Part shown: positions 3,468 through 64,000 of the stretch, one piece after another
Layout of the letters: every line of letters begins with the position of its first letter
Position numbering within the stretch: the first letter of the stretch is position 1
Assembly: GCA_964016885.1 (NCBI GenBank)
Contig: OZ024742.1
Span: forward strand, 266,910,001 to 266,974,000
Source of the DNA: Eledone cirrhosa
Lineage: Eukaryota
Length of the DNA: 64,000 nt
Direction: 5' to 3'
Position numbers and translations under genes: made by a program
Notes under the pieces: generated by a model
The model's input: only the letters and a program-made list of their open reading frames with translations
Told to the model about the DNA's origin: nothing
The model's database searches: none

Positions 3468-5329
3468 TTCTTCTGGTTTTATAATTTCACAAATTTTTTC
3501 CCAATAGAAAGAGACTCGGTTTCTAACATAGACACAAGACTCTCTCATTGGAATTTACACAACATCAACTACGTAGAATATGTATGTCTGCATGTGTAGA
3601 TATGGATGTTATTGTATGTGTGGATGTGGATGTTTTGAGTTGTATGTGTGTATGTGTATATGCTTTGCATCTGTACATGTGTATATGCAGTTATTAGATG
3701 CAAAATGTTTGGAATGTTTTACATATTTTTACTATTCCATTAATAGATTGTACTTGTAATTTCCTACCTAGTTGTGTTCTTTCTGTTCCTGTGAAGCCTA
3801 GCTTCTCAAGATTTGTATTGCGGTAGTTACTAATATACCCCAGTGACCCAATAATTACAGGTATAAATCTGAAGGTGTAATCAGGGTGGAGTATCTTCAG
3901 ATTTCTCATCAGCTCTGCATAAATATTCACCTTTTCGCTAATCTTTGATATTATATTGGCATCTGCTGGGCAGCTAATTTCCACTACTGTGCATGCTTTC
4001 TTCTCCCTGTTTCATATCATAATATCTGGTCTGTTATGCCTGCATCTTATTGGGGCTTTTACTGGAACATTCCACCAGTACTCTTTCATATTATGTACAT
4101 GGATGTCTTCCACATTGCTGTAGCTTTTAATGAGTTTATCATCGGGGCTATCTTTTTTACGAACTGCATTGTACAGTCTTTTGGCCACTACATCATGCCT
4201 CATAGGTAGATAGTACCGCGATGACATCTTTGGACAGCTGCTGATGACATGGTTGATATCCTCGATGTTAGTTCTGCAGAGTCTGCACTTGTTATCACAT
4301 CTAGGTGTTTTGCCTGCTTCCCTATCTCTTTTATGAATCAGGTATTTCGTGTTAATCTCCTGTTCTTGGATTGCAAAAGCGTATCCTTTAAAGTGGGAGC
4401 CAATATAGCGGTTGTTGGTCCAAGATAGACTACTTTCCTTATCTATCTTACTCTCACTCTGGAGCTTCCTGGCAACATATCCATGCATGATTTTTTGCTG
4501 ATAAGCATGCAGTTTCTCATCCATGGATTCACTGCGATACTGCTGAGCGACTTCCCTGGGTGTGAGTTTTTGATTATCACACAGGGAATATCTCTCGAGG
4601 AGTTCCTTCCCAACTCTCATGATCTTATCTGTTTCATCCAGATAGACTTGCTCGAGAAACGGGCTCCTACGCTTCGAGCTTCGTAGATGTTTTCGAGGAG
4701 ATATGATGCGACATTCAAATGTTGTCTGGACTGATATTAGGCCTCTGCCTCCCTGCTTACGTTTCAAGTAAAGGCGGTCTATGTCACTGTTGATGTGGAA
4801 GTTTCCAGTGTTGTTTAGTATTTTTCGAGTTCCAACATCAACTGCTCGGATTTTGTCTATCGTCCAATTGAGTATTCCAAACGTTGGTGTTAGGACAGGC
4901 ACATCAAACACATTGAGAGCCACTGTTTTGTTTTGCGCAGAGAGTTCCGATGACCAGATCTTTCTTAATCGGGTGCAGTATTCCCTGGTTACGCGTTCTT
5001 TATTACAGATACCATTATAGGATATGTTCTCATCTATCCCCAGGTATCTGTAGCAGTCCTCATCAGATATCGGTGAAACAGTTAGGCCATTGATGACAAT
5101 GTTGCTAGATTGGGTTATTGTTTTTCCCCGCTTTACAGTCATGTATGAGCATTTATATTGGCCAAACTCCATTCCTATATCCTTTGAGAACGTTGTAACC
5201 AGGTCAAGATTTTTCTTTATCCCATTCATGTTCTTGGCATAGAGTGTCAGATCGTCCACAAAGAAATTATGGGTTAGGTTCGTATTTCTGCCCTCCTGTG
5301 AGCCAATGATGTATCCCTCACATTTCTCC
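3468..5329 (-). mobile_element. 5'-truncated R4/Dong-like LINE (RT C-half, CCHC, REL endonuclease)
   Basis: FFVDDLTLYA, FSKDIGMEFG..KC, YRYLG, RLYLKRKQGGRGL, AIQEQEINT, CRLC..HVISSC, MRHD and RPD in 4012-5259; frameshift into EISCP...PVIIGSLG (3694-3984). Confidence 0.9.
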
Positions 5330-34616: not shown

Positions 34617-35730
34617 GAAGAATGATAAAATTTCAAGCAAAGAGTTTAATTAGGTATATTTTGTAATATTATTAACTAATTATTATAATTAACGCGCATA
34701 TTTTGCTATCCTCAAACACGTTTACACATGGCATGAAATATAACTAATCCGAGATGGCTAGGTTTCATCTTCTAACTGGATAAACGAAATCCATTATGTC
34801 TTGACAACAACATGAGGTAACATTATGTTATTCACAGACACACTTTGTACACTGTTCCATATCAGAATGTATTTCCTTCGTCACATTCACAAACAGTATT
34901 GAAAATATGTTCTTCGGCAAATAAAAATGTTTTGTTCATAATATTTCAACTAGCGATTGCTCTACTCCACGCACGACCACCATAAATTAATGACCAGCTC
35001 AACACAAGTATTGGTAGAGCGTCAGATACCATGCTTTGCAGTATTGTTATGGTCCTTTGCATTCTAAGTTCAAATCCTGCCGAGGTTAACTTCGACTTTC
35101 ATACTTACTAATTCGATAAAATAAAGTACCAGTAATGGACTGCCGTAATGGATTTGTGCCGAAAAATAGAAACACTATTAATGTGCAATAAGAGCAAAAT
35201 ATAACGACATTGCTCAATTATTTTATCTAATGTTGTAATAACACAAGGAAATGTTGTTTGTGTATTTTTTTTTATATTTGCTCATAGGCTTTTACAATTT
35301 CGCTCAGCCAACAACTATTAAAAAGTGAGTTGCTTAAGATAACAATTTAATCACAAATTGTTGCTATCTTTTAATACACTCCAACAAGTCATCAAATTAT
35401 GTACAATAAAAACAAATCTTATTAATTTGCTCAGGGAATATAAAGAAAATGTATATACACTGATAATTGCAAATGTATGTAAATATTTTGTTTTTGTATT
35501 GTATATTTTATGTTTTCTATTATGTATAATATATTGATTTAATATTGATTGTTTTTTGTAGTTGTTTATATTAAAAGTCTGAAAATATTTTTATACATCT
35601 TACACTAATATTTATAAGATAATTTATAATAACAATTACATAATCTAATTACATTACAACGATAATTTATTATTAATATATATCCTGTTTAACTAGAGTT
35701 ATTACAAGCGTTGCCTTAAAAAAATATTAA

Positions 35731-36687
35731 ACTAGACATGAAAAATGCGCAAGCTCAAAAGTGCCACAGAATGTTATAATAAACCTTCAAAAGTGTGGGA
35801 CTAGAGTTGTTGCTAAAAAATATTGTAATCATTATATATCGTACATTCTGTGGCATCCTTTATAAAAATAGCTTAAACCAACGAAGCCTTTATTTTTACG
35901 CTATTTCACTTAGTTAATTCTTAGAGTGTAACATATAAAAATAAATACATCTATGTTTAATGTAATAACAGCTATAAATAATTACGTAATATTATTATCA
36001 TATACTCATAGTAACAAAATAATTGTGTTGAAACTTAATATGATGCTTATATGAACGATCAAATCTATAATGATAATTTCTTAAATATACTAATAGTAAA
36101 ATAATTTAGTTATCTATTGTTACATTTTCATAGAACTATAATATTAACAATCGTATTGCATTATCAAATTTTTATCACTACAAACTTTCATATTGGAATT
36201 ACCTTAAGCCACTTATTATTACTTCGCTTTCGTACTTTTACAGCTGTAGATATTGCGCTGTATCTTATATCTAATATCAATATCTCGTGGTAATTTGCAT
36301 GAAGTGTAAAATAGGTTTATTAATAACTTTAATATGAAATGTATTATACAGGGCTGCGGAGTCGGTCAAAAATTGACTGGCTCCAACTCAGGATCCGATA
36401 CTCCATTATTTCCTAAATTTCAGCTCCGCAGCTCTGTTATTATATTAATTAATTTATTTTATAGTTGTAAATCATATTTTTATATGTTACACTCTAAGAA
36501 TTAACTAAGTGAAATAGCGTAAAAATAAAGGCTTCGTTGGTTTAAGCTATTTTTATAAAGGATGCCACAGAATGTACGATATATAATGATTACAATATTT
36601 TTTAGCAACAACTCTAGTCCCACACTTTTGAAGGTTTATTATAACATTCTGTGGCACTTTTGAGCTTGCGCATTTTTCATGTCTAGT
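35731..36687. repeat. Foldback/MITE-like unit with about 213-bp inverted arms
   Basis: 35731-35943 is the reverse complement of 36475-36687; no mismatch seen by eye. Confidence 0.85.
36349..36436. mobile_element. Tiny MITE with CAGGGCTGCGGAG-type TIRs and about 8-bp TSD
   Basis: cagggctgcggag...ctccgcagctctg flanked by gtattata and ttattata. Confidence 0.7.
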
Positions 36688-36704
36688 ATATATATTCTTA
36701 TGCC

Positions 36705-46049: not shown

Positions 46050-48960
46050 CAGCACTGGTCGTCACTGTTTGGAGAAAGAACGCATACGTGTTTGTGTATG
46101 TTCAGCGGGTCCTGTCAACTGGTCGGGCTGAATCCCCAAGCGAGATCCACCAGGTACCCAACCACCTTGCTCGGGGTCTACCCCTGGGTCTCCTTCCGGC
46201 TGGTTTTGCTCGTTAAATCTGTCCAGCGATTCTTTCTTGAAACATTCTAACCACATACCCATAGTAACGGAGCTGTGATCAGTCATTTTTGAGAAGTAAC
46301 GGCTCTACCTGTAGTGACTATTTGATCTTCGAGCTACTCCAAAGAACCTTCGGAGTAAACGGATTTCGGCTGCTGGTATTTGCGATCGTATTCTTCCGGC
46401 ATTAACCAAGATGCATGACCATAGGTAAGGGTTGGCGCGAATACCGAATTGAAGATAGTGAGTTTGGCTTTTACGCCTACCTCCCTTCTTATGATTACTG
46501 AATGCTGAATCTGGCGTATTACTGCACCAGTTCCTGCAATTCTTGCATTTAATCCAGCCTCCTGCCTTCTATCACCCGTGAACACGGCCCAGAGATACTT
46601 GAACGTCTCTACCTGCTTCAGTGGAAGTCCATTCACATGCTTAGTGAATGCAGGCTTCGTTGAGAAGATGAGTGCCTCAGTTTTTGCCGGACTAATTTTC
46701 ATTCCAGCCACGTAGCACTCGGCATCACACCTATCGAATTCAAGTCGAAGATGACCTTCTTTCGAGTTAAGTAACAGAAGGTCATCTGCAAATTCCAGCA
46801 GAGTGATTTTACTCCCGGCAGTCATGATACTACTTCCAACCCGGGTGTGAATGTTAATCCTGTCCATGTAAATAATAAACTGGAGAGGTGACATTAAGCA
46901 CCCTTGGCGGTGTATGACACCAACATTGAATAGTTTTGATTTAGTACCATTTATCCGAACACAAATACTCGGGTATTCGTATAGAGACATCACGGCAACA
47001 GGAATCTGACCATCGATCCCATACTCGACAACACAAGAACATAACTATTGATAATTGTCATACGGTTCCCCGAAGACCTGCCGCAGTGTGATTAAATGCT
47101 CTGCTGTGCTGCGTCCACGCTAGCTTGGACTCGACAATCTCCATGCATCTCTTTGCCAAGCACTTAACATAGATTTTACCGGAGAGGCTTAACAGGGAGA
47201 TCTCTTTATAATTGGAACAATCTCTCTTGTTTTCCCTTTTGAAAATTGTGATTATCATTCCAATGGTGACTTTTCAGAGATTCAGGCCACCCGGCACCTT
47301 TATGTAAGGCTTTTAACATCTCGGGCCATAATTCATCTTCACCAACAGTTTTGTCACATTTGAGCTCTTTAATTGCTCTTGTAATCTCATCCTCCGAGAG
47401 ATAGTCACCGCTACCAGTTGTACCTCGTGTACACCAGAAGATAGTGTTGTGATCATGTTCACGAGACCAGCAAAGTGTTCTCTCCACCACGAGGATACAA
47501 TTCTCTGAAGAGAAGAGAATCCCGGGTGCGTTCTTGATAGCAAGAGTGGAGGACAGTTTCTTATTACGAAGTCGGTTGATGGTCTGCCAGAAGACTTTAG
47601 TTGGTGATTTGAAGTCGGATTCCAGCTTAACACCAAAGACCTCCCTACTGAAGCTGTTAAATGTTGCGGACAAAGGAGGCTTCCTGTGGCGCCGGATGGC
47701 AGGAGGGCCCAAAGACTTTACTTTGGTCACCTTTACTGTCTCTGCCGCGATTCCTCGTGTCTGCTTGTGAAAGAAGGAGGACTTATTTCCAAGCCAAGCT
47801 TTGTAAAACTCCTTCTTTGCTTAGATGGCATCTCTGACCTCATTATTGAACCAAGGGGTCCTCCTGCTATCCGTTGCTACAGCAAACCTCTTTTCTTCGC
47901 AACATTTAACAACATCAGTTGAAGCTACTGAGCTGAACAATCTCCATTTTGTCTCAACGTCCTCAGTTTGCTCAAGGAGTTCTTTGAATTTGTATGCAAT
48001 AGTATCTGCATACCTGATACGGACTTCTTTATCCCCCAATGCTTCTCACTTTATCCTGTAGGTCGCCCTGGAACTGCCAGTTTCGTATGCTTCTTTAGCT
48101 TTAGTTGCAAATTGCAGATAATTAAATGATGATCGGTTGACAGGTCAGCCCTTCCCTTAACACCAACATCCAGCTCAGAATCAAACAGATCAGAGTCAAT
48201 AACAGAATCAATGATTGATCTCTGTCCCTTATACCATGTATATCTATGGATGTCTCAGTGCTGTAAGAAGTTCATAATAGAGAGTCCATTGCTAGAACAG
48301 AAGTCTAGTATGGCCTCACAATTCGTATTTAGATAGGGGTCCCCATTCCTTTCGATATCAGGTCGTCATTGCCAACATGTGCATTGAAGTCTCCAATCAG
48401 GATATATGACTCAGTCTTAAGTACATCTAACGCTTCAGTACATCTAAACTTGCATCACCCACAGAGACCTATCTTTCCGCCTAAGCTTCAAGAGGCGAAT
48501 GCTCTCCCCTAATGTGATCCAGTCCATAACACACGCTAACAGCCGGGGGCTTGTGAGTATTTCAAATCCCACCTGTACAGTTATTTCTTGCGCCCCACCT
48601 GAATAGTTGAATTTCCATCCTCCATCCAATTCTACAGTATACGAGGTACGGTATTTTGTTGAGGGATCCCCGACTATATCTAGCCGGTAGCATCTGGACT
48701 CCACCACTACCACCTGCTCGTTACCTGTAAGGATTGTGATGTTACAGGTTGCAATTGTCAAGGTTTTCTCACTTCCGGACCCTCTTTGGGGATACGCAAT
48801 CTTTGTGCATTCATCCCACGCCTCTCAGTATTGGTCGCAGGCCCATCGCCAGATTTTTGCGGCATGAAATGGAGAGCGCAATTTCTTTTCTAATGGCCAC
48901 CCTACCTACGGCCTGAACGTGTCCCTTGTTAACCCGCGCGAAGAACGACGTGGTATGTTT
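46050..48960 (-). mobile_element. Near full-length degenerate RTE-clade LINE
   Basis: APE start TIATCNITILTG.E; IFKRENKRDCSNYKEISLLS; RQGCLMSPLQFIIYMD; LEFADDL; FKYLWAVF; many disablements. Confidence 0.9.
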
Positions 48961-52399: not shown

Positions 52400-53870
52400 G
52401 GGGCTGAGGGTTTTATGTGGCTGGGAGGTGGGTGGTGGCATTTTCTGTTGTGGGTGTTTTTGTCATGTGTGGAGTCCTGTTCGTATGTCTTCTATTTTTG
52501 TGTTTTTTCGGTTCAGGCTTTGATTCGTTTTTCGCAACAGTAAGACGAGAGCTCTGTCTGTAAGTGTGTTTGTGTCTGTGTGCTTAGGATTGTGATTGTG
52601 TCAATGTGTGTATTTGGGGGAGGGGTAAGAGCTTTCCTCGTTTTCCCCCTTCTTTTGGTTTTTGGTGCTGATGGTGGTGGTACTGGTTCGACTGGTGTTG
52701 CTGCTGTTTGTGGGGCTGCCGGTGTAGGTGTTAGTGGAGCTTTCCGTCTCGGCACTGGCGTTGGCAGTAACGGAGGTTTGCGGCCCTCTGCATTTTTGAG
52801 CTGAGGACAGAAGGGTCACAAATGTGTTGCTTTCCCGCAGACGAAGCAGTCTGACCCTCTACCCTTCAATGATCAACTGTATTGTGGACCCTTCCTGAAG
52901 GCGCACATCATCCGGATGTTGTTTAGTTGTTCCGATTTGGAAAAGAATCTCCAAATCCATCCCAGACCAGTCATCTCTCTCCTTCTTTCTCACGTCTATG
53001 AGGGTACTGTCGGTACCCTCCTTGATCAGGTACCCCAGGAGCCACCATAGGTTCAATCCTGGTGGGGTGCTGTTCTTTTGCCCATGTGGGACGGGTACAT
53101 CACAAAGCGATCCGTTCTGCAGGGGGCCACCGAATGTTTTATAGCAATGGCCTCGAATTTGAACAGCACCGTGATGGTGCCGAACTATTTGGCTCTTGGT
53201 TTGTATTCAATGTAATTGTTTATGCATTATGCATTTCAGTGCAGCTTTGACTTCCGCTTGGCTGGCGAGTTCCGCCTTGCGACTCTGCACCAAAATACAT
53301 CGATATTACAAAGTCTTCCTTTGAGTTGCTGCTATTGTTTTGTCTGGGATGGTTAGGTTGGCCGAGGATTTTTCTCGCCTTATCAGCTTCTTCACATGGG
53401 ACAACTACTGTGCCTTGTACGAAATACCAACTGGGAAAAATGTTTGGTTTTTTGCTGTCGCAGCTGCGAATGAGTTGTTGTTGTTGTTGCTAGTGGGCAC
53501 AATTTTTCCTTTTTCTCTTCGTTTTTGTTGGTGTTGTCGTTAACGTTGTTGTCATTTTTGTTGCTGCTGCTGGTGGTGTCATTGTTCACATTGCTCTTGT
53601 TGGTAGTGTTGTAATTGTTTCTGTTGCCGATGTTGTTGTTGTTATCGATGTGCAGTTGCTTGTGTTGTTGGTGTGGCTGTCTTCGACGCAGCATGTTGCT
53701 GTGCTGTTTATATTGTTTCTCTTCTCAAAGGAGGTCGTAGTAAAGACGGTGTTCCTCCCGTCAACGCCTGCACCACTGTCACAAGACAGCAGACTTGATG
53801 TTGGGAGGCCTGGCTCCGAACATGTTTTTTAAAGCACATTTTCGTTTTGGATAGCCGAGGGTGATGAAGG
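52400..53870 (-). mobile_element. Degenerate Tx1-like ORF1 (gag-like)
   Basis: Asn-rich N-terminus, zinc knuckle CFVCGKATHL*PFC and Pro/Thr-rich tail; same layout as ORF1 at 62-63.9 kb. Confidence 0.7.
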
Positions 53871-54096
53871 CAAGAAAGGCTGGGTTGTTTGTTTAGGTCT
53901 CCTTTTTAGGGTTTTCTACATCCCCAGCATATACGAATGTGGCCTAAAGCGGGTGCTTTCTCATGCAAGCAGGATTCGATCTCCTTTGCTGCTTCAACTG
54001 AGTGTCGACGGCCATCACACTTGCACAGCCAAGCTTGCTGAGGCGCTGTATGTTATTATACGTTCAGGGAAATTTAACAATCAACGTCATATTTCT

Positions 54097-57000
54097 TGTG
54101 TTACCTTGCGTCTCTCTGGTCCACGTGCGAGTACTGTCCGCTTGCGTCTGTCTTCACCGCCTGGTCCCACGAGTCGCCCCCGTCCTCTTGTCAGGCGTCC
54201 CCCAACTTCCGGCAATCCCCCTCCCACGGCAGCTCTACACCCTCCGGCAGCTCTACACCCTCCGGCTATCACGCGGTAGCCTCACACGACCCCTGATCTC
54301 AAGGATCAACCCCCCCCCCCATCACACTGCTCCAGCTCTAAATCCGCCATCCAGCTAGGTTGGCGGCGGCTCCGTTGCGATCTCCGCACTGTTGGGGCGG
54401 CACTTTCATTTTCCTCTTCCTCGGAGTCCGTCACCACAACGACTCTACGGACGTCCAAGACGTGACGTGGCATTCCGTCCACAGACACGTTGTTTTGGGG
54501 ATTTATGGCGGTTACCATTCCCTTTCCCCATTGAGATGTACAACGCACGTTCGGGGGCTTGACCCATACCTCCTCGCCCACTCGTACGAATGCGCTCTCT
54601 CTCTCCACCGGCTGCTGTGGTACAGTGCACGGGTGTCGCCATTCATATCCGTATATTGCTCTGTACAGCACCGACTCCTCGGCTTCTCCGACCCGCGGAG
54701 ACATGTTGTACCAGAACACTGCCTCAGTTGGCGAAATATGCCCCTTTCCGCCATGGCCCTTGATCGTGCGATGATGTCTCTCCACGATCCCATTTCTGCT
54801 CGCCCTGTATGCTGCTCTGAAGAAGCGGTTTACCTTCCACTAGTCAAGCATTTCCCTCAGCGCCTCCGAGCGAAACGCCGTGCTGTTGTCCATCAGCAAT
54901 TCATCCACAGGGCCCCGCTCCATAATATCTCTCTCAGCGTCCGCACTATATCCTCCAAAGTCCCTGGCTTCATTTCCCTCCATATCGCCATCCGCCCCGG
55001 CCCACAATCGACTATCGAAAGATACGTTCGTTGTCGGTAGTGTGTCACGTCCACCGCTAATCGCTTCCAGTTGTGCTCCACCTGGATGCTTCCAGTCTCG
55101 TGCACACCCGGGGCAGGGACGATAGACTGGTATCTGTCGCAACCTCCGACCACTCTCTGGACACTCTGTCTGCTAACATCAAAGTCAATTCTTCTGCCTA
55201 GGAACAGGGTCCTATCCACCCCCATGTGGTGCATGGTGTGCAGTCCCCTCAACTCCGAATCACTCAGCTGACATACTGCCGTTATCCCCTTCTCTGCGTC
55301 CTCCGGCGTTTCCAAACAGGCTTTCTTCACCCTGGTTAATACGTCTGCCCTGTTTTTCTCTTAGGGCACAAAAACCACACTCAACTCCAGGCCGAACTCA
55401 GTGGACAGCTCTCCCAGAGTTCCCAGGCGGCGCTTTATCAATATTTCTGCTGCCCCTCTCGTTCGCACCCTCCTCTCACTGGTAAACACTGATCTCACCC
55501 ATCCGAGTACAGTGGCCGAGTCAGTGCGGATTTCTATGGTGCGCAGCCCCCATCTCTGGGCGAGATTCACCCCTCTAGGCACAACATCCAGTTCGGCCAC
55601 GTTGATGTGGCTGTAGTATCCTACTTCCTGAGGCAGGCTGCGTCCTCGACCTCGACGCCCCCTATCTCCAGTGTGACCCCAAGTGCTATGCTGTTGGCAT
55701 CACACCATATGGTGCCGCTCTGCGATTTGGGGATGTTCCAGCGTCGTTTCACTTGGTCATCCGCCTTTACCCTCTCCACGATTCCCTGCATTATGGCCAT
55801 TGTCCTCTCTCCAGCCCTGTCAGCCCAGCTCACTCCGTCTGCTCGTCTCTTGACATAGCTGCATGCCGTCCGGAGCCACCCTGCGATCGGATAGTAGACC
55901 ACCACACATTGAGAAGAATTCCCGTCTATTCATATCGGAGCCCAGTTCCGGGACTTCGTTACCCCTCCGAGTGTGCCCGTCTTATCCCTTTGCAACCTGA
56001 GTCCTAGCGCGGCTTCTCCTTCCATCACCTCCAGCGGTTTCGCGGTCAGCCCGAACCTTCCCAAGTGGCCTGAACTTCTTCTGCTGACACCACCGTCTCG
56101 TCCACCAAGATGTCGTCGTTGATGAGTTGGTGGCCCTATTCACCTTGTCCGCTTTCTCCAGAATGGCCTTGAGGACCGTCGCCATGATTTCTGGCGCAGA
56201 GTTCAATCCGAAGTCAAGCCTGGTCCGGCAGAATGTCTGGCCCTTATACCTGACCAGCTGATATTTCCACAGCTTCTGATCCACGTGTAACTGAAGATAT
56301 GCCGACTTTAAGTCGACAATCGTGGAGGCCCCCGTCATCCGCCTCCACTCTTGCAAAGTTTCCCCGCAAACATCCGTGACCTCACCGCCTGTGTGGAATG
56401 ACACGTGTTCGTTCAGCTCACGAAAGTCCAGCACCGGCCTAACCTTGTTCTTCGTTGGCTACACCACTGCCATCAGCGGCAACACTCTACGCTTCACCTC
56501 CTCCTACCAAGGAAGCAGTATATCCTCCTTGATCCATCTCTGTACCTCTCCCTCAAGCTCGCTTCTGGCATTTCCTTTCACAGTATGCTGATAGCAGCCC
56601 ACTCTGTTCTTTAGCATTGGTGGCTCTTTCTTCCAGTACCACTCAACTACCCACCGCTGCTCATCGAACACCGCCCTGAAATCCTTGTCCTGTATAGTAT
56701 TTTATTCGTGGATCGCCCTGTTCTTCGTGGATTCTCCCAGCACGCTCACAGCACATGATGTCCTCTCGTTACCAAACCTCACTCCGACTTCAGTCACTGT
56801 AACACTTCCAAGGCAGCCAATCGTGTCCATGCCCATTACTACATCGATTACATCCACCACCTGGTTAAGCACGATCGCCCGAAGCCTAATTTTTCTTCCC
56901 CGTACCACCATCGACACCTCGCTGGTACCTCTGTATCTAATCTCCCTTTCGTCGACTGCCCTTATACTGCTCATCACGCTCCCCCCTTTTAACCACCTCC

Positions 57001-58148
57001 GTGATTACTAGTGCTGTCGTGAAACCCGTGTTCACGAGTGCTCGCGATGGCTTCCCTCCCACCAAAACTTCCACTACGGGCAGCGACTGCAAAGGCGCCT
57101 CTACTCGCCCTCAGGGGTGGCTACCGGCGCATTAGACCCCTTAGACCATTTCCCTGGTCGTAATTATTTGCGATGTGGCCTGGTCGCTTGCAGCGATAGC
57201 AGACTATAGCTGGCTACGGCTCTCTGCAGTCCATTGCCATGTGCAGGCCCTGGCACCAGAAGCACCGGCCTCCGAACGCACGCGGAAGACTATTCACAGC
57301 GGCTGGTCTCATTTCGTCATACGTCGTTCGCTGTCCACTGCCATGGGCTTCCGTCACTGCCAGCGCTTCAATACTCCACCTCGTGTCCTATGTTATTACG
57401 CGGGCATGTGCGATGAGCTCGCTCATGCTCATCTCTCTGTTGCCGGGCAGCTGTTGGAGCGTCACGGAGATTTCGTCGGGGAACCCGTTCATAAAAGCCA
57501 ACCGCACGGCGCATTCGCGTTCTACCGCGAATCCGGTCAACGTAGCCAACCGCCGTAACTCTGTCGCGAACACTGCCACGTGCCCTCCCTGCCATCTCGC
57601 TCTGCCTAGCTTGCAAAAGCAGCGTACGGCCCCTCGGTGAACGCTTCCTTAAGTCGCTGTACTATCCTCTCCGCGTTCAGTAGGTCGTCCTCGTCCATCT
57701 CAAGGTACAGTGCTAGGGCATCCCCGTCAAGATATAGAGCGATCAAACCAGCAACGTTGTCAATGTCTTGCAGCGAGGCGACCAATGTGACCTTTCTCAA
57801 CCAGGCCACAACATATCCCTCGCCGTTAAAAGCCTTGATCATCTCGCTATACAATCTCAGTTTCGCTGCCATCTCCCCTGCGAGATCGGAAAAAAATCAA
57901 CAACGATACCCCACGAAAGAGTGTGGGGCTGCCGCGAGATAGTGGGAGGGGGGTTGCCGGAAGGTGGGGGATGCCTGACCGGAAGCAGGAGGACGGGGGC
58001 GACTCGAAGGACCAGGCGGTCAACAGGGGCATCTTAGCCATAGGCCCTCGAAGGTGACCGACGTGTGAAGGCAGATGCAAGTGGACCAGAGAGACGCAAG
58101 GTAAGCCCGAATGCCTCCGGCTACAAGCTGGTCAGACGTCAGGCTACA
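54097..58148 (-). mobile_element. Ty3/Gypsy retrotransposon (gag-PR-RT-RH-IN), disrupted, with inverted terminal repeats
   Basis: gag knuckle CYRCKRPGHIA; protease ALVNTG; RT LDFRELN...VDLKSAYLQ; RNase H WCDA...AEL...TDS; integrase HHMGVDRT...LAVDVTH...DNSTAF...ERHHRTIK. TG...CA ends and TTTCT TSD. Confidence 0.9.
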
Positions 58149-58245
58149 TTTCTTTTGGCTCATTCTAGAATGCATGTGCGTGTGTGCCTACGTGAGTGTT
58201 TGTGTGCCTATATGAGTGTTTGTGTGTGGTTGTGTGTGTATGTAT

Positions 58246-59781: not shown

Positions 59782-61319
59782 TGCTGGTTCTTTAGGTAAG
59801 TTATTTACCCCGATCACGTAGAAAATGAAATATAAAAACGACAATATCACAAAACCTCTATGTTGCTAATTTATCAAATACAACTTTCGTCGAAGTTATA
59901 CGACAAAACACGAAAAAGAAATAACCAGAGTTTAATTGTGTGATATCGGGGATGATGTGTCTGCTTGCAAAGGTATTATAAATGTATTTACTAAACTTCT
60001 GTTAATGGGATGATATTCGCTGGCCTTGCTGAGAGAGAAAGAGAGAGAGATAGAGGGGGGGGGGGGGGTAAAGTGAGAGAGAGCCCTAAAGGGTCAGTGT
60101 GCGAGATAGTTGACCACTACATCTTAACTATTAGGTAGGGACTCTGTAACTACTTGCATTGACTGGGAGTAGGCTATTTATGAGTATTCCATTGTTGCGT
60201 CAGAGGGATATAAGGATAAGCAGATGGCCGTTTGATATGTCAAAATCTTAGACGTATTGGCAATTCGACAGCAACGTTACAATGGAAACTTATCAATGAG
60301 TCCACCAAAAGTCAACTTCTCGGTGGCCACTTGGCAGTGAAAGAAATTGAATTGAGGAGATTATCTACTGATTGCTACATATATACATCATATACACACG
60401 GGCATTTAGCGGGGTGTTGTGCGCATATAAGTGGCTGTATGATTGCGTGTGTTTAATTTCACCGCACGCGCACTCCCTGCCATGCTCTTGTGTTCTAGTA
60501 CCCATGCATGCGTATGTGTGTGTGTGTGTGTGTGCGTGTGTGTGTTTACGTGTGTGTCTGAGAGCATGTACACTCCGTGTTAGTGTCTGTGTGTGCGTAT
60601 ACACGAATGCGAGCCCGACCGTGCATGTGTGTGTGCGTGACTTTGTTGTGTGTATGTGTGTGTGTGGGGTTGTAGGTGTGTGTGCATATTTGTGTGCATG
60701 TGAATGCGTAAATGTATAGCCCATCGATACTAGTCGATACTAACCCCCCATATTATTAGTCGTGTACGACAAAAGCAACAACAACTACACCATCGGTGAC
60801 GAAATCTAGAAGAAAGAAAGAAAAAAAAATAGAAACGCTGAAAGTAAGAGAGGAACATTTAAGGGTAAATGGATCAGGATGCCAGCTAAGATCAGAGTTT
60901 TACCGACCGAAGCGTTCCTCGTGTGAGTACACCAGAGGGGAGTGGTTGTGTTGAGTGCTATTGGAATTAGATTGTGATTATTTCCTTGCTGATGATTTAA
61001 GGACGGCGACATCAGACAATCTCAACAGCGACAATAACGACAATAAGAACAGCAGTAAGCACCGCCACCACCACCACAACCACCAACACCACCATTTGTG
61101 AGGACTCTGCCCCAAGAACTTCTCAGCAATAAATGAGTGAAGAAGAAGATATACATATATATTTTTGGTCCTTAGCCTAATGGCAATGAAATCACCGAAT
61201 TCGAGAGATAAGTATCTCGACTCCTCGCTGGCGCTTATATGTACTTTTTTGTATCTAAGCGTAATTTACCCAGTACGTATATATTTATATATATACACAC
61301 ACACACGCATACACAAAAA

Positions 61320-61610
61320 TCGGTCGATGCGATCGGTGCAAACTCCACCTTGGCGTTCTATAGAACGAAATTAACTAACCAATCTCTTCGGGAGAACTTT
61401 CGGGCCGGGGCCTATGGACAACTTCCAGAAATCCTTGGCCTGGCAGTGCTACCGGGAGCTTTGCCAGTTCGGGATAAACTCTACAGGCATGGAAGTGCCT
61501 TCAGCCGGGTTGTCCGAGATGCGCGCAGGGCGACGAAACCGTCATGCACGCACTCGTCCAGTGTACGAGCATTGCTGACTTGTGGGTTTATGTCGAACAC
61601 CTGCTGTCGC
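61320..61610 (+). mobile_element. Tx1-like ORF2 C-terminal fragment
   Basis: AIGANSTLAFY, FGPGPMDNFQKSLAWQCY.GALPVRDKLYRHG, then ETV.HALVQC..W.YVE; homologous to the 26737 copy. Confidence 0.75.
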
Positions 61611-61620
61611 TAGTGGCCGT

Positions 61621-63960
61621 CTATGCCCCGACAGGGGCATAGACGGCCACTAGCCTGAAAGCTTGCCCGTCTCCGCTGGTCACGTCTAGCACCACCAGCT
61701 TACCCTCTGGGTCCAGGAAGATGGCCCGTATGGCGAGATCCAAACCTCTCCGAAAAAGCACAGCAACTCCTGCCCCCGATCCAGGACGGCTGGGAGATGC
61801 GTACACATCGTAGCCGCCGAAGATCGGTTCGAAGGCCCGTGCTTCGGAGATTCTGGTCTCGCTGATGGCCACTACATCTATGTTTAGTGACCTGAGGGCG
61901 TTGAGCAGGTGACCCTGCTTCCATGACGACCCCAAGCCACGCGCATTTATGCTGCCTATTCTGAGTGAGGTCATGTTTAAAATAGAATGGAAAAGATGGG
62001 AAAGACCACTTACCGTACTTTTGGTAGAGGAGGGATGGTTTTTACATCCCTTTTCACTTGATCGTCTGGTGAAGGGACCGTTGAATCGTCCCTTCGGCTG
62101 GTCGTCGGCTCTTCTAAGAGAATGTCTGAATATACTCTTCGATTGATGGTTCCTCCTAGGTCCCTGAAATCACCAACTGCGTTGGGGAATTTCGGTTTAA
62201 TGTTTGTGTATTGTTTCTGTGCTATTTTTAGCAGTCTTATGTTAGTTGGCGTTTTGATTGGTGCTGGTATTATGTAGTCGTGTTGTGAAATGTCTATGTG
62301 TTCAATTATGTAAGTCATTAGTTTCTTGTTGTGTGTATTTATTGCCGTGCATTTGTTTTTCTGGGGGTGGGGTGTGGTTCTGTTTTTTTCTTGTTGTTGT
62401 TGCTGGGTGTGTGTGTTTTGTTGTTGTGTTTGCGATGTTGGTGCTTGTGGTGGTGGTGTTGAAGGTGTTGTTGGCGGTGGGGTTGTCGCCGGTGGTGATG
62501 GTGGTGCTAGTGTGGGTGGTGATGGTGTGTTGGTGGTGTTGCTGCTGTGGGTCTCTTTGCAGTAGACTTTACCCTTTTCTCATTTCTTTCCTCCCTTTTC
62601 AAAGGCGACGATGCGCTGCTTCTGCGTTTGTGCCTTCTTACGACATTTTGCCATCTCTCTCCCCCCTCACACTCCATGTCTGATTCTGTGAGGTCGGGGA
62701 GGGGTACCAGCTCCACTCTTTCATTTGTTGTTGTTGGTGATGTTTGCACTGGAGTCTCTGTTGCAGCTGCATTTGGTATTGCTGTTGTTGTTGTTAATAT
62801 TTCCACTGCTGCTGCTGTTTTTGATTTCCGTGGAGTGGGTATGGGTGCCACGGACCTATCGTTCCTGGTTGCCGCTTGTCCTGTTGCTGGTAGCCGTGGA
62901 GCCGGTTTCGGAAGGAGGGGGGGGGGGTCTCCTTTCTCATGGTCTTCTCGTTGCAGAAGGCCCTGAGGTGAGTCTTCGATCCACAGCGAAAGCATTTCGG
63001 GCGTTTTCTTTCAACACTTATGGGCAGTTGAGTGCCGTTATCGAAGTCTATCACATCCGGGATAGCTTCGATGCACTCCTGGTTGGTTTGGATTAGCATC
63101 TCAATGGAGGTGCCGACCCAATCTTCTCTTAATTTTTTCTGTACTTGCAGTACAGTTGTTTTGTCCTCGATTCCGACGAGGATAGACGCGGCCAGCCAAG
63201 AAGGGGCCATTCCGGGGGGGACGTGGGTCAGTTTGACCTTCACAATTTTTAGCCCGCAGTAGGAGGGCACCAACACCATTTCCTCGCTCCTTAGGGTCAC
63301 TACGGATTGGGCCTTTGCCTCCTGGGGTGTGGCAAAAAGTACATCTACAGTGGCATATTTTTTTCCTGGGGTGATGTGCGTTTTCCGCCGCCACACAGAC
63401 CCCAAGGCTTTTTGTATTTGAGCCTCTGTGGCTCTTTCCACCCTACGGGATTTTGTACTTACTGTACGATACGTGACCGTACAGTGCTGTTGGGTTTCGA
63501 AAAATTTTTCCGCTGCCTTGCAGATTACTCGGTGTCCAGTCTTTGTCACCATCTTCTTCGCTTCCTCTAATTCCTCATTTGTTATGAGGATTGTTTCCAA
63601 GTTTTTCGCAATACCTGCAAATGAGATTGCTTTTTCTTTGCTGCTGTTGTTGTTGTCGTCAGAGCTGCTGTTACTTTTGTTGTTGCTGCAGGTACTACGA
63701 CTACTGCCTCCGCCGCTGTTGCTGTGGTTGTTGTTGGTGTTGCTGCTGCTAATGCTGTTGTTGTTTATGCTGCTGGTGATGCTGTTGCGGCTGCTACTGT
63801 TGTTTTCATTGTCACTGTTGCTGTTGTTATTACGGCTGCTACTGCTATTATTCCTGACGTCAGACGTCAGACGTATTTCCCGCACACCTGTTTCGTCGCT
63901 GTCGTCGTCGTCGTGGAGAAACCTTGCACGCTTTGCACGAGACTTTTCTTTTCTTTCGTC
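61621..63960 (-). mobile_element. 5' half of Tx1-like LINE: ORF1 (frameshifted) and start of ORF2 APE
   Basis: ORF1 62794-63885 with an Asn/Ser tract and CFRCGSKTHLRAFC; ORF2 from 61974 reads MTSLRIGSINARGL...DVVAISET...GVAVLF...VAVYAP, truncated at a hairpin. Confidence 0.85.
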
Positions 63961-64000
63961 GCTTGCGAAAGAGAAGGGAGGGAGAGAGACACATTTAAAG

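Follow-up and report, generated by a model that had tools for sequence, protein, structure and literature searches.

Long terminal repeat (LTR) retrotransposons of the Ty3/Gypsy type (Metaviridae) are replicated by standard strand transfers that yield identical direct LTRs (PMC6894440). Inverted ends are described for elements of other kinds. DIRS-1, a reverse transcriptase (RT) element with non-identical inverted terminal repeats, requires a tyrosine recombinase and an internal complementary region (ICR), which is complementary to the outer ends (PMC7192593). Ginger1 has terminal inverted repeats (TIRs) of 40-270 bp that start with TGT, a 4-bp target-site duplication (TSD) of CCGG or CCGT, and no RT. 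Bao et al. have proposed that these TIRs derive from a pair of oppositely oriented LTRs flanking an integrase (PMC2836005), and Benachenhou et al. find Ginger TIR and LTR ends alike (PMC3601003). No integrase-encoding retrotransposon with inverted LTRs is described in the literature searched, outside which most subscription papers and Repbase Reports fell. Because LTR reverse transcription gives identical direct repeats, a unit with an RT, a DDE integrase and inverted LTRs would not be expected to propagate normally. Here, we describe such a unit in the cephalopod Eledone cirrhosa, within a stretch of 64,000 nucleotides (assembly GCA_964016885.1, contig OZ024742.1, positions 266,910,001 to 266,974,000 of the forward strand), hereafter the window. 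The reading that we prefer, with a probability of about 0.5, is that an ordinary element with direct LTRs, of the clade marked by the DUF7047 domain, gave rise to this now dead copy, whose 3' LTR was joined backwards once in reverse transcription and which was then integrated as a unit.

The element spans positions 54097-58148 (4,052 bp) and is coding on the minus strand, with a decayed order of gag, protease (PR), RT, RNase H and integrase (IN). Its ends are formed by two repeats. Repeat A, which we read as the 5' LTR in normal orientation, lies at 57922-58148 on the minus strand (TGTA...CACA, 227 nt), and repeat B, which we read as the 3' LTR in an orientation opposite to that of the coding strand, lies at 54097-54286 on the plus strand (TGTG...CACA, 190 nt). 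When the region was compared with the whole window by BLASTN, opposite-strand matches were found between 54153-54227 and 57942-58023 (82 columns, 82.9% identity, E 1e-18) and between 54101-54128 and 58077-58104 (28 columns, 96.4% identity, E 3e-6). The window contains no second copy of the element, nor any other non-microsatellite match longer than 25 nt by BLASTN. Global alignment of A and B in inverted orientation gives a score of 130.5, whereas none of 500 shuffles exceeds 41; of its 149 aligned columns, 131 are identical, and a further 119 columns are gaps. In direct orientation, the score is -15 (shuffle mean -37, shuffle maximum -8), and there is no direct pair. The whole unit is bracketed on the plus strand by TTTCT at 54092-54096 and again at 58149-58153.

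These results bear out what a previous sequence-only reading of this DNA had reported (i.e., inverted terminal repeats, each running TG...CA, within TTTCT flanks), with inner ends at 54286 and at 57922 rather than 57923. The same reading had described a difference of some 45 bp between the outer ends. The ends do differ, in the form of a 40-nt block that follows the common TGT and is found in A only, to which four inner indels must be added. It had also cautioned that a 5-bp duplication can arise by chance. Since a chance 5-mer match is expected at 0.0017-0.0027 per boundary pair and 15 nearby TG/CA boundary pairs were tried, one of which shows a 5-bp match, we estimate this possibility at ~3-4% at most. 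The inverted repeats are genuine and unusual, and the copy that carries them is a dead one from an LTR clade that has been little described. An assembly artifact, in which parts of two copies or a reversed LTR contig were joined, is extremely unlikely. The window is microsatellite- and repeat-rich (~37% GC) and A and B look like different variants, as such a join might produce, but the window contains no N, the longest perfect block between A and B is 24 nt, the junctions are exactly at the LTR ends, and the 5-bp duplication brackets the unit.

How does this locus compare with the known systems? As in Ty3/Gypsy elements, there is a gag (CCHC)-PR-RT-RNase H-IN order, a DDE integrase, TG...CA termini, a 5-bp TSD, a 3' G-tract and a size of ~4 kb. 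However, in contrast to these elements, the repeats are inverted and non-identical, with no pair of direct LTRs; TGG is missing beside the LTR, the GPY/F motif is not evident, the RNase H is of the RVT_3 type, and the RT of the clade is below the RVT_1 cut-off. The element is reminiscent of DIRS-1, which also combines an RT with non-identical inverted terminal repeats (PMC7192593), but it differs by its DDE integrase, its protease and its 5-bp TSD. A tyrosine recombinase has neither a match nor room in the element, and local comparisons for an ICR gave best scores of 15-21, with shuffle means of 16-20. DIRS identity was rejected on the lack of both recombinase and ICR. Repeats of 190 and 227 nt that both start with TGT, together with a Gypsy-type integrase, are within what is described for Ginger1 (PMC2836005). 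Unlike Ginger1 and Ginger2/Tdd, the element has gag, PR, RT and RNase H, a TTTCT duplication and imperfect repeats, and no OTU or Ulp1 domain. Ginger identity was rejected because the element carries an RT. Both systems had been aptly named as contrasts in the sequence-only reading.

The architecture of relatives is important for interpreting these ends. A scan of GTDB produced three loci from 46 pattern matches, of which the third, a short decayed fragment, was left out; plasmids and phages contained no match to element DNA. The other two, L001 (CAYLZS010000363.1) and L002 (CAYLZS010000154.1), are eukaryotic contigs in a genome labelled bacterial, probably because host DNA contaminated the assembly, and their pol is 39% and 44% identical to that of the window copy, respectively. 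L001 is a 3,934-bp k141 contig in which gag and pol are intact and which starts and finishes with the same 141 nt. On one strand, it reads pol end, a single pyrimidine-rich LTR candidate (~146 nt), leader and gag. Because assembly at k=141 loops on identical direct LTRs longer than k, and would not do so on inverted ones, L001 appears to have direct LTRs. L002 shows the same pyrimidine-rich strand after pol, with an LTR candidate of 162 nt; LTR boundaries in both contigs were inferred. The fraction of purines on the coding strand is 0.36 in A, 0.35 and 0.33 in the LTR candidates of L001 and L002, respectively, and 0.66 in the 3' repeat of the window copy. Since A matches the purine polarity of L001 and L002, and B is the reverse, B would be the repeat that was flipped. 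This call of orientation rests on strand composition and junction motifs because the LTR sequences do not align: comparisons of A or B with the LTRs of L001 and L002 gave scores of 11-18, with no alignment signal, and the LTRs of L001 and L002 score 73 against each other, with a shuffle maximum of 74.

The inner junctions of both repeats look native. On the polypurine-tract side (54287-54320, minus strand), a run of 11 G over the end of pol is followed by the stop codon (54306-54308), a short hairpin (54294-54308), GGGG and a 3-nt spacer, and the order of stop, short hairpin, short G-rich tract and TG is common to the window copy, L001 and L002. We therefore consider the G-tract before repeat B to be a putative polypurine tract. 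On the other side, the leader with the primer-binding-site position (57873-57921, minus strand) starts with CTC, as in L001 and L002. Because the junction order and CTC are common to both relatives, the break points of A and B would correspond to LTR ends rather than to random sites. Judged by these shared motifs, B is reversed exactly between the native hairpin/G-tract junction and the TSD. We considered whether the hairpin before B could be a 15-bp insertion with its own duplication, which was rejected since L001 and L002 carry hairpins at the same place. In addition, a small hairpin, judged by eye, lies across the LTR/leader boundary in the window copy and L002.

A and B differ both by substitutions and in length. 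Five anchored blocks show 10 mismatches in ~130 columns (7.7%, with two A positions counted twice), and between them are blocks found only in A (the 40-nt head, 46 nt and a net 7 nt) or only in B (16 nt, and 38-39 nt corresponding to a tandem duplication). The coding region, which is a pseudogene, offers a clock for comparison. In pol, there are five in-frame stops and seven frameshifts; in gag, two stops and one frameshift. Among columns that are the same in at least 90% of 60 relatives, 276 are covered by the window copy and 31 of these are changed (~5 being frameshift edges or frame misassignments), compared with a mean of 2.7% in intact relatives. Assuming ~2.2 replacement sites per codon, this decay corresponds, as a rough estimate, to 3-4% neutral drift, which would place twin LTRs 6-8% apart. 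Since block divergence is near this value, A and B would be of one age. Nevertheless, they are unlikely to have been twins at insertion because they differ by five indels of 7-46 nt, when the conserved RT and RNase H-integrase stretches, compared with four relatives, show no gap of three or more codons (gaps are confined to linkers and frameshifts). A and B are thus probably sister LTR variants that were already unequal at insertion.

This has implications for the alternative, raised in the sequence-only reading, that a normal insertion was followed by a flip of one LTR. In such a scenario, the 3' LTR would have been inverted in place, or would have been overwritten by gene conversion with a solo LTR that belonged to a sister variant and lay in reverse, via short homologies at LTR ends. 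It would explain why the TSD is kept, the block divergence fits twin LTRs, and the head-tail complementarity described below could have served as substrate. However, both break points would have to hit 3-4-nt homologies at exact LTR ends, and the five indels, set against the lack of comparable gaps in conserved pol stretches, leave a simple flip a poor fit. We consider such a later rearrangement quite unlikely.

Unequal LTRs are known from HIV-1, where 26 of 88 integrated proviruses had asymmetric LTRs, ascribed to plus-strand strong-stop DNA passing between co-packaged genomes, and where rare inversions were also reported (PMC9278108). Like the Eledone copy, these are integrated one-off products of reverse transcription with unequal LTRs. 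The mechanism that we propose for the backward joining is as follows. RNAs with two sister variants of the LTR would have been present in one particle. The 3' tail of a sense-strand copy of the LTR (plus-strand strong-stop DNA, from variant B) would then have paired with the head of the LTR immediately past the polypurine tract. Minus-strand synthesis primed there would have fixed B in reversed orientation at exactly that junction. The normal second jump would have supplied LTR A. Both outer ends of the resulting molecule would be LTR starts presenting CA-3', because of which integrase could have inserted it with a 5-bp duplication. Once inserted, the copy would have been unable to repeat the normal first strand transfer and would have decayed.

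This mis-primed intermediate would account, using known chemistry, for junctions at LTR ends, the TSD, unequal LTRs and equal age, and we give it an even chance. The annealing step is consistent with the predicted pairing between the tail of B and the head of A (-18.1 kcal/mol), which was matched by none of 1000 shuffles (alignment p=0.004). A single error of reverse transcription is further supported by the direct architecture of L001, by the native inner junctions, by the HIV-1 precedent, and by the lack of ICR and recombinase.

Several points weigh against it. The priming step is without direct precedent in the literature consulted. Normal plus-strand strong-stop DNA terminates, on its 3' side, in a copy of the primer site, whereas the model requires DNA that lacks this copy, and sister variants with five indels yet few extra substitutions are an assumption. 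The tail of B pairs better with seven of 1,276 other windows in the element than with the head of A, and the tail of A itself shows no pairing to that head (176 of 1000 shuffles are as good). In the parts of the HIV-1 study consulted, asymmetric LTRs stay direct and differ by deletions, with no whole LTR flipped (PMC9278108). The looped L001 contig could also be expected from a tandem array or a one-LTR circle. Finally, the relatives whose DNA ends were compared, L001 and L002, are distant, branching far from the window copy in the RNase H-integrase tree described below; the best relative proteins are ~60% identical over the element.

Two other readings, which we regard as rather unlikely even when taken together, would make the inverted arrangement more than an accident: either there is a propagating integrase-encoding lineage with inverted LTRs, or a compound palindromic LTR was opened in its loop. 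The former would be a subfamily that keeps gag-pol and rebuilds or reuses its ends differently, by an A/B panhandle in single-stranded cDNA, by sense LTR copies that helper elements with direct LTRs provide in trans, or by cut-and-paste of the inverted ends by integrase, a route that has been put forward for how Ginger1 arose. A working design would be expected to show what is seen here, namely exact TG...CA ends, a TSD and inner junctions of native appearance, and the near-perfect blocks between bulges resemble a maintained stem. Of the seven A/B transitions, six would form G-T pairs in the minus-strand copy (one-sided p ~0.06, post hoc), where the duplex is also more stable (-139 vs -130 kcal/mol), a bias that hints, weakly and post hoc, at such a stem. 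LTR finders that look for direct repeats would miss an inverted-LTR family. The Ginger1 proposal of Bao et al. (PMC2836005) is in line with this possibility. On the other hand, standard strand transfers give identical direct LTRs (PMC6894440). Panhandle repair predicts identical outer ends, precisely where A and B differ most, and there is no ICR; ends that are not homogenised should exceed the copy's own age in divergence, which A and B do not. The window contains no second copy, and the sequence-only suggestion of a family with unusual replication is weakened by the inferred direct LTRs of L001, a distant relative. On balance, an inverted-LTR subfamily is unlikely.

Remnants of palindromic LTRs, also suggested in that reading, survive only in a modified form. 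Neither repeat is palindromic alone (self scores of 24, with a shuffle maximum of 26), and folding of each is unremarkable (z -0.98 and 0.95). They could still be complementary halves of a compound direct LTR of ~417 nt, composed of reversed B then A with the 40-nt head of A as loop. If a one-LTR circle or a cDNA were opened within the loop, at a CA/TG site, one arm would be left at each end. No further steps are then needed to account for the position of reversed B next to the G-tract and of A next to the leader, or for the partnerless head of A and the bulge differences between arms. However, the LTR candidates of L001 and L002 (146 and 162 nt) show no compound structure and are rich in pyrimidines over their whole length, A by itself is as large as a complete LTR and has both of its ends, and an integrase site inside the loop, not visible in one copy, is required. 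We therefore find a compound LTR very unlikely.

Protein data were also searched for traces of the LTRs of closer relatives. Among the best 120 of 162 matches to a query of pol end plus repeat, no protein covers more than 72% of it, as a read-through protein would, and the heads and tails of 371 proteins gave short compositional matches only to A or B. Separately, a frame in reversed repeat B (54165-54305, minus strand) is weakly similar to the RT thumb of the family (~38% over 52 residues, E ~0.15), a likeness that is probably compositional. A motif like a splice donor is found antisense in both repeats (~58098-58106, plus strand; 54099-54106, minus strand), that of B now being along the coding strand. 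Neither poly(A) nor TATA motifs were found on either strand of A or B.

As for priming, CTC rather than TGG follows the LTR at ~240-260 in L001, 2960-2990 in L002 and 57904-57930 in the window, and none of the three has a TGG primer site beside the LTR. There is no tRNA gene in the window, the leader has no meaningful Rfam match, and the two Rfam matches found overall are due to chance. Elements of the DUF7047 clade may therefore start reverse transcription by an unusual priming route. A 12-nt stretch in the middle of repeat A (58003-58014, minus strand), which starts with TGG, may resemble the complement of a tRNA-Tyr 3' end. No CA precedes this stretch, and B differs from it at two positions.

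The clade to which the element belongs is, by its protein matches, a widespread invertebrate one found in molluscs and crustaceans and marked by DUF7047 (PF23088), a domain named in no paper of the literature searched, outside which most subscription papers fell. The RT piece matches 135 proteins, the best 120 of which are 54-76% identical over the matched part; these are mostly 900-1,230 aa long and encoded on ~4 kb contigs. Named hosts are Aplysia, Plakobranchus, Argonauta, Palaemon, Petrolisthes and Trinorchestia, and matches to the integrase end bring in Elysia, Acanthosepion, Oratosquilla and Octopus bimaculoides. The RNase H piece matches 594 clusters at 50% identity, indicating that the clade is large. 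A tree was built from an RNase H-integrase piece of 231 aa, with 75 rows chosen among the 175 that were left when 232 full-length matches had been dereplicated. In this tree, the window copy is in a supported group of 24, loosely beside a protein of Argonauta (84/85). The nearest relative with a named host is the Argonauta hians match GAB1600005.1. Such neighbours, together with the GC content and microsatellites of the window, would fit a cephalopod-like invertebrate as the source.

Is this a Gypsy clade, as the sequence-only reading stated? In all five relatives examined, the RT is below the RVT_1 cut-off (20-27 vs 29.6 bits) and the RNase H matches RVT_3; the labels RT_RNaseH (PF17917/PF17919) and phage integrase (PF00589) occur in none of the best 120 of 135 homologues. 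The RT profile has 28 matches in the PDB at E<=1, all weak and retroviral or foamy-type by name, with no chain named Ty3 RT. In the Atlas, look-alikes of a relative's Gag carry Retrotrans_gag/Ty3_capsid at 0.92-0.94 (Pfam Retrotrans_gag, E 0.018, is found in one of five relatives), and RT-RNase H look-alikes include unnamed Euglenozoa clusters, a mollusc RVT_1 cluster and Peptidase_A17 (BEL) clusters, at 0.89-0.92. The gag-pol order and DDE integrase stand, and the element would best be described as Gypsy-like in the order of its domains and, probably, in its Gag, whereas its RT and RNase H are divergent. Cigr-1 is alike in size and LTR length and is a possible affiliation, the MolGy clades being equally possible. 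Seven Cigr-1 families have been described in O. bimaculoides by Thomas-Bulle et al., three of them via LTRharvest, that is with direct LTRs (PMC6238403), and Filee et al. recovered Cigr in annelids (PMC8556966).

The individual domains, all on the minus strand, are recognizable despite their damage. Gag (57140-57872), with two CCHC-type knuckles, has a frameshift near 57615 and two stops. The aspartic protease (56701-57095), corresponding to Asp_protease_2 and gag-asp_proteas in relatives, has a changed catalytic Asp position, a frameshift near 56970 and a stop near 56703. The RT and DUF7047 region (55716-56700; RVT_1 E 0.0034, DUF7047 E 2e-11) shows stops at 56506 and 56461 and frameshifts near 56117 (in the region of the active-site motif), 56067, 55969 and 55905. 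The RNase H (55330-55715), which matches Pfam RVT_3 rather than RT_RNaseH, has a frameshift near 55620 and a stop at 55363. The integrase (54306-55260), defined by tblastn to family proteins that show rve and Integrase_H2C2 when intact, keeps its D,D,E core residues; the last Cys of the zinc-finger region is changed, the C-terminal domain has no evident GPY/F motif, and the reading frame is interrupted twice, near 54925 by a frameshift and at 54842 by a stop.

The surroundings are rich in other repeats. On both sides of the element is a decayed ORF1-like sequence of non-LTR type (52400-54096 and 58149-58163, minus strand), which it interrupts at the start. This sequence is 35% similar to 62900-63360, and an ATG at 58161-58163 (minus strand) opens a frame running 10 codons across the target site. 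A homologue search with this interrupted flank, as a check for the empty site, returned none of 232 candidates at E<=10. A non-LTR remnant at 61300-64000 (minus strand), with a zinc-knuckle ORF1-like region and Exo_endo_phos at 61624-62169 (E 3e-6), is probably L1/Tx1-like. Further non-LTR RT remnants on the minus strand are found at 4015-5328 (RVT_1 E 1e-5, zf-RVT) and 46337-47044 (RVT_1 E 3.5e-10). At 35728-36690, there is a 963-bp AT-rich unit, MITE- or foldback-like, with 216-nt inverted arms that are 99.5% identical and separated by 531 nt.

An important implication of this locus depends on which reading holds. If the copy is a one-off, it would preserve a strand-transfer error of a rare kind and would show in nature the layout invoked by Bao et al. 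for the TIRs of Ginger1. If it represents a family, this would be an undescribed kind of element that replicates in a new mode and to which annotation tools are blind. A truly propagating lineage would be a real intermediate between an LTR retrotransposon and a Ginger-like TIR transposon, and would need a non-standard way of rebuilding its ends.

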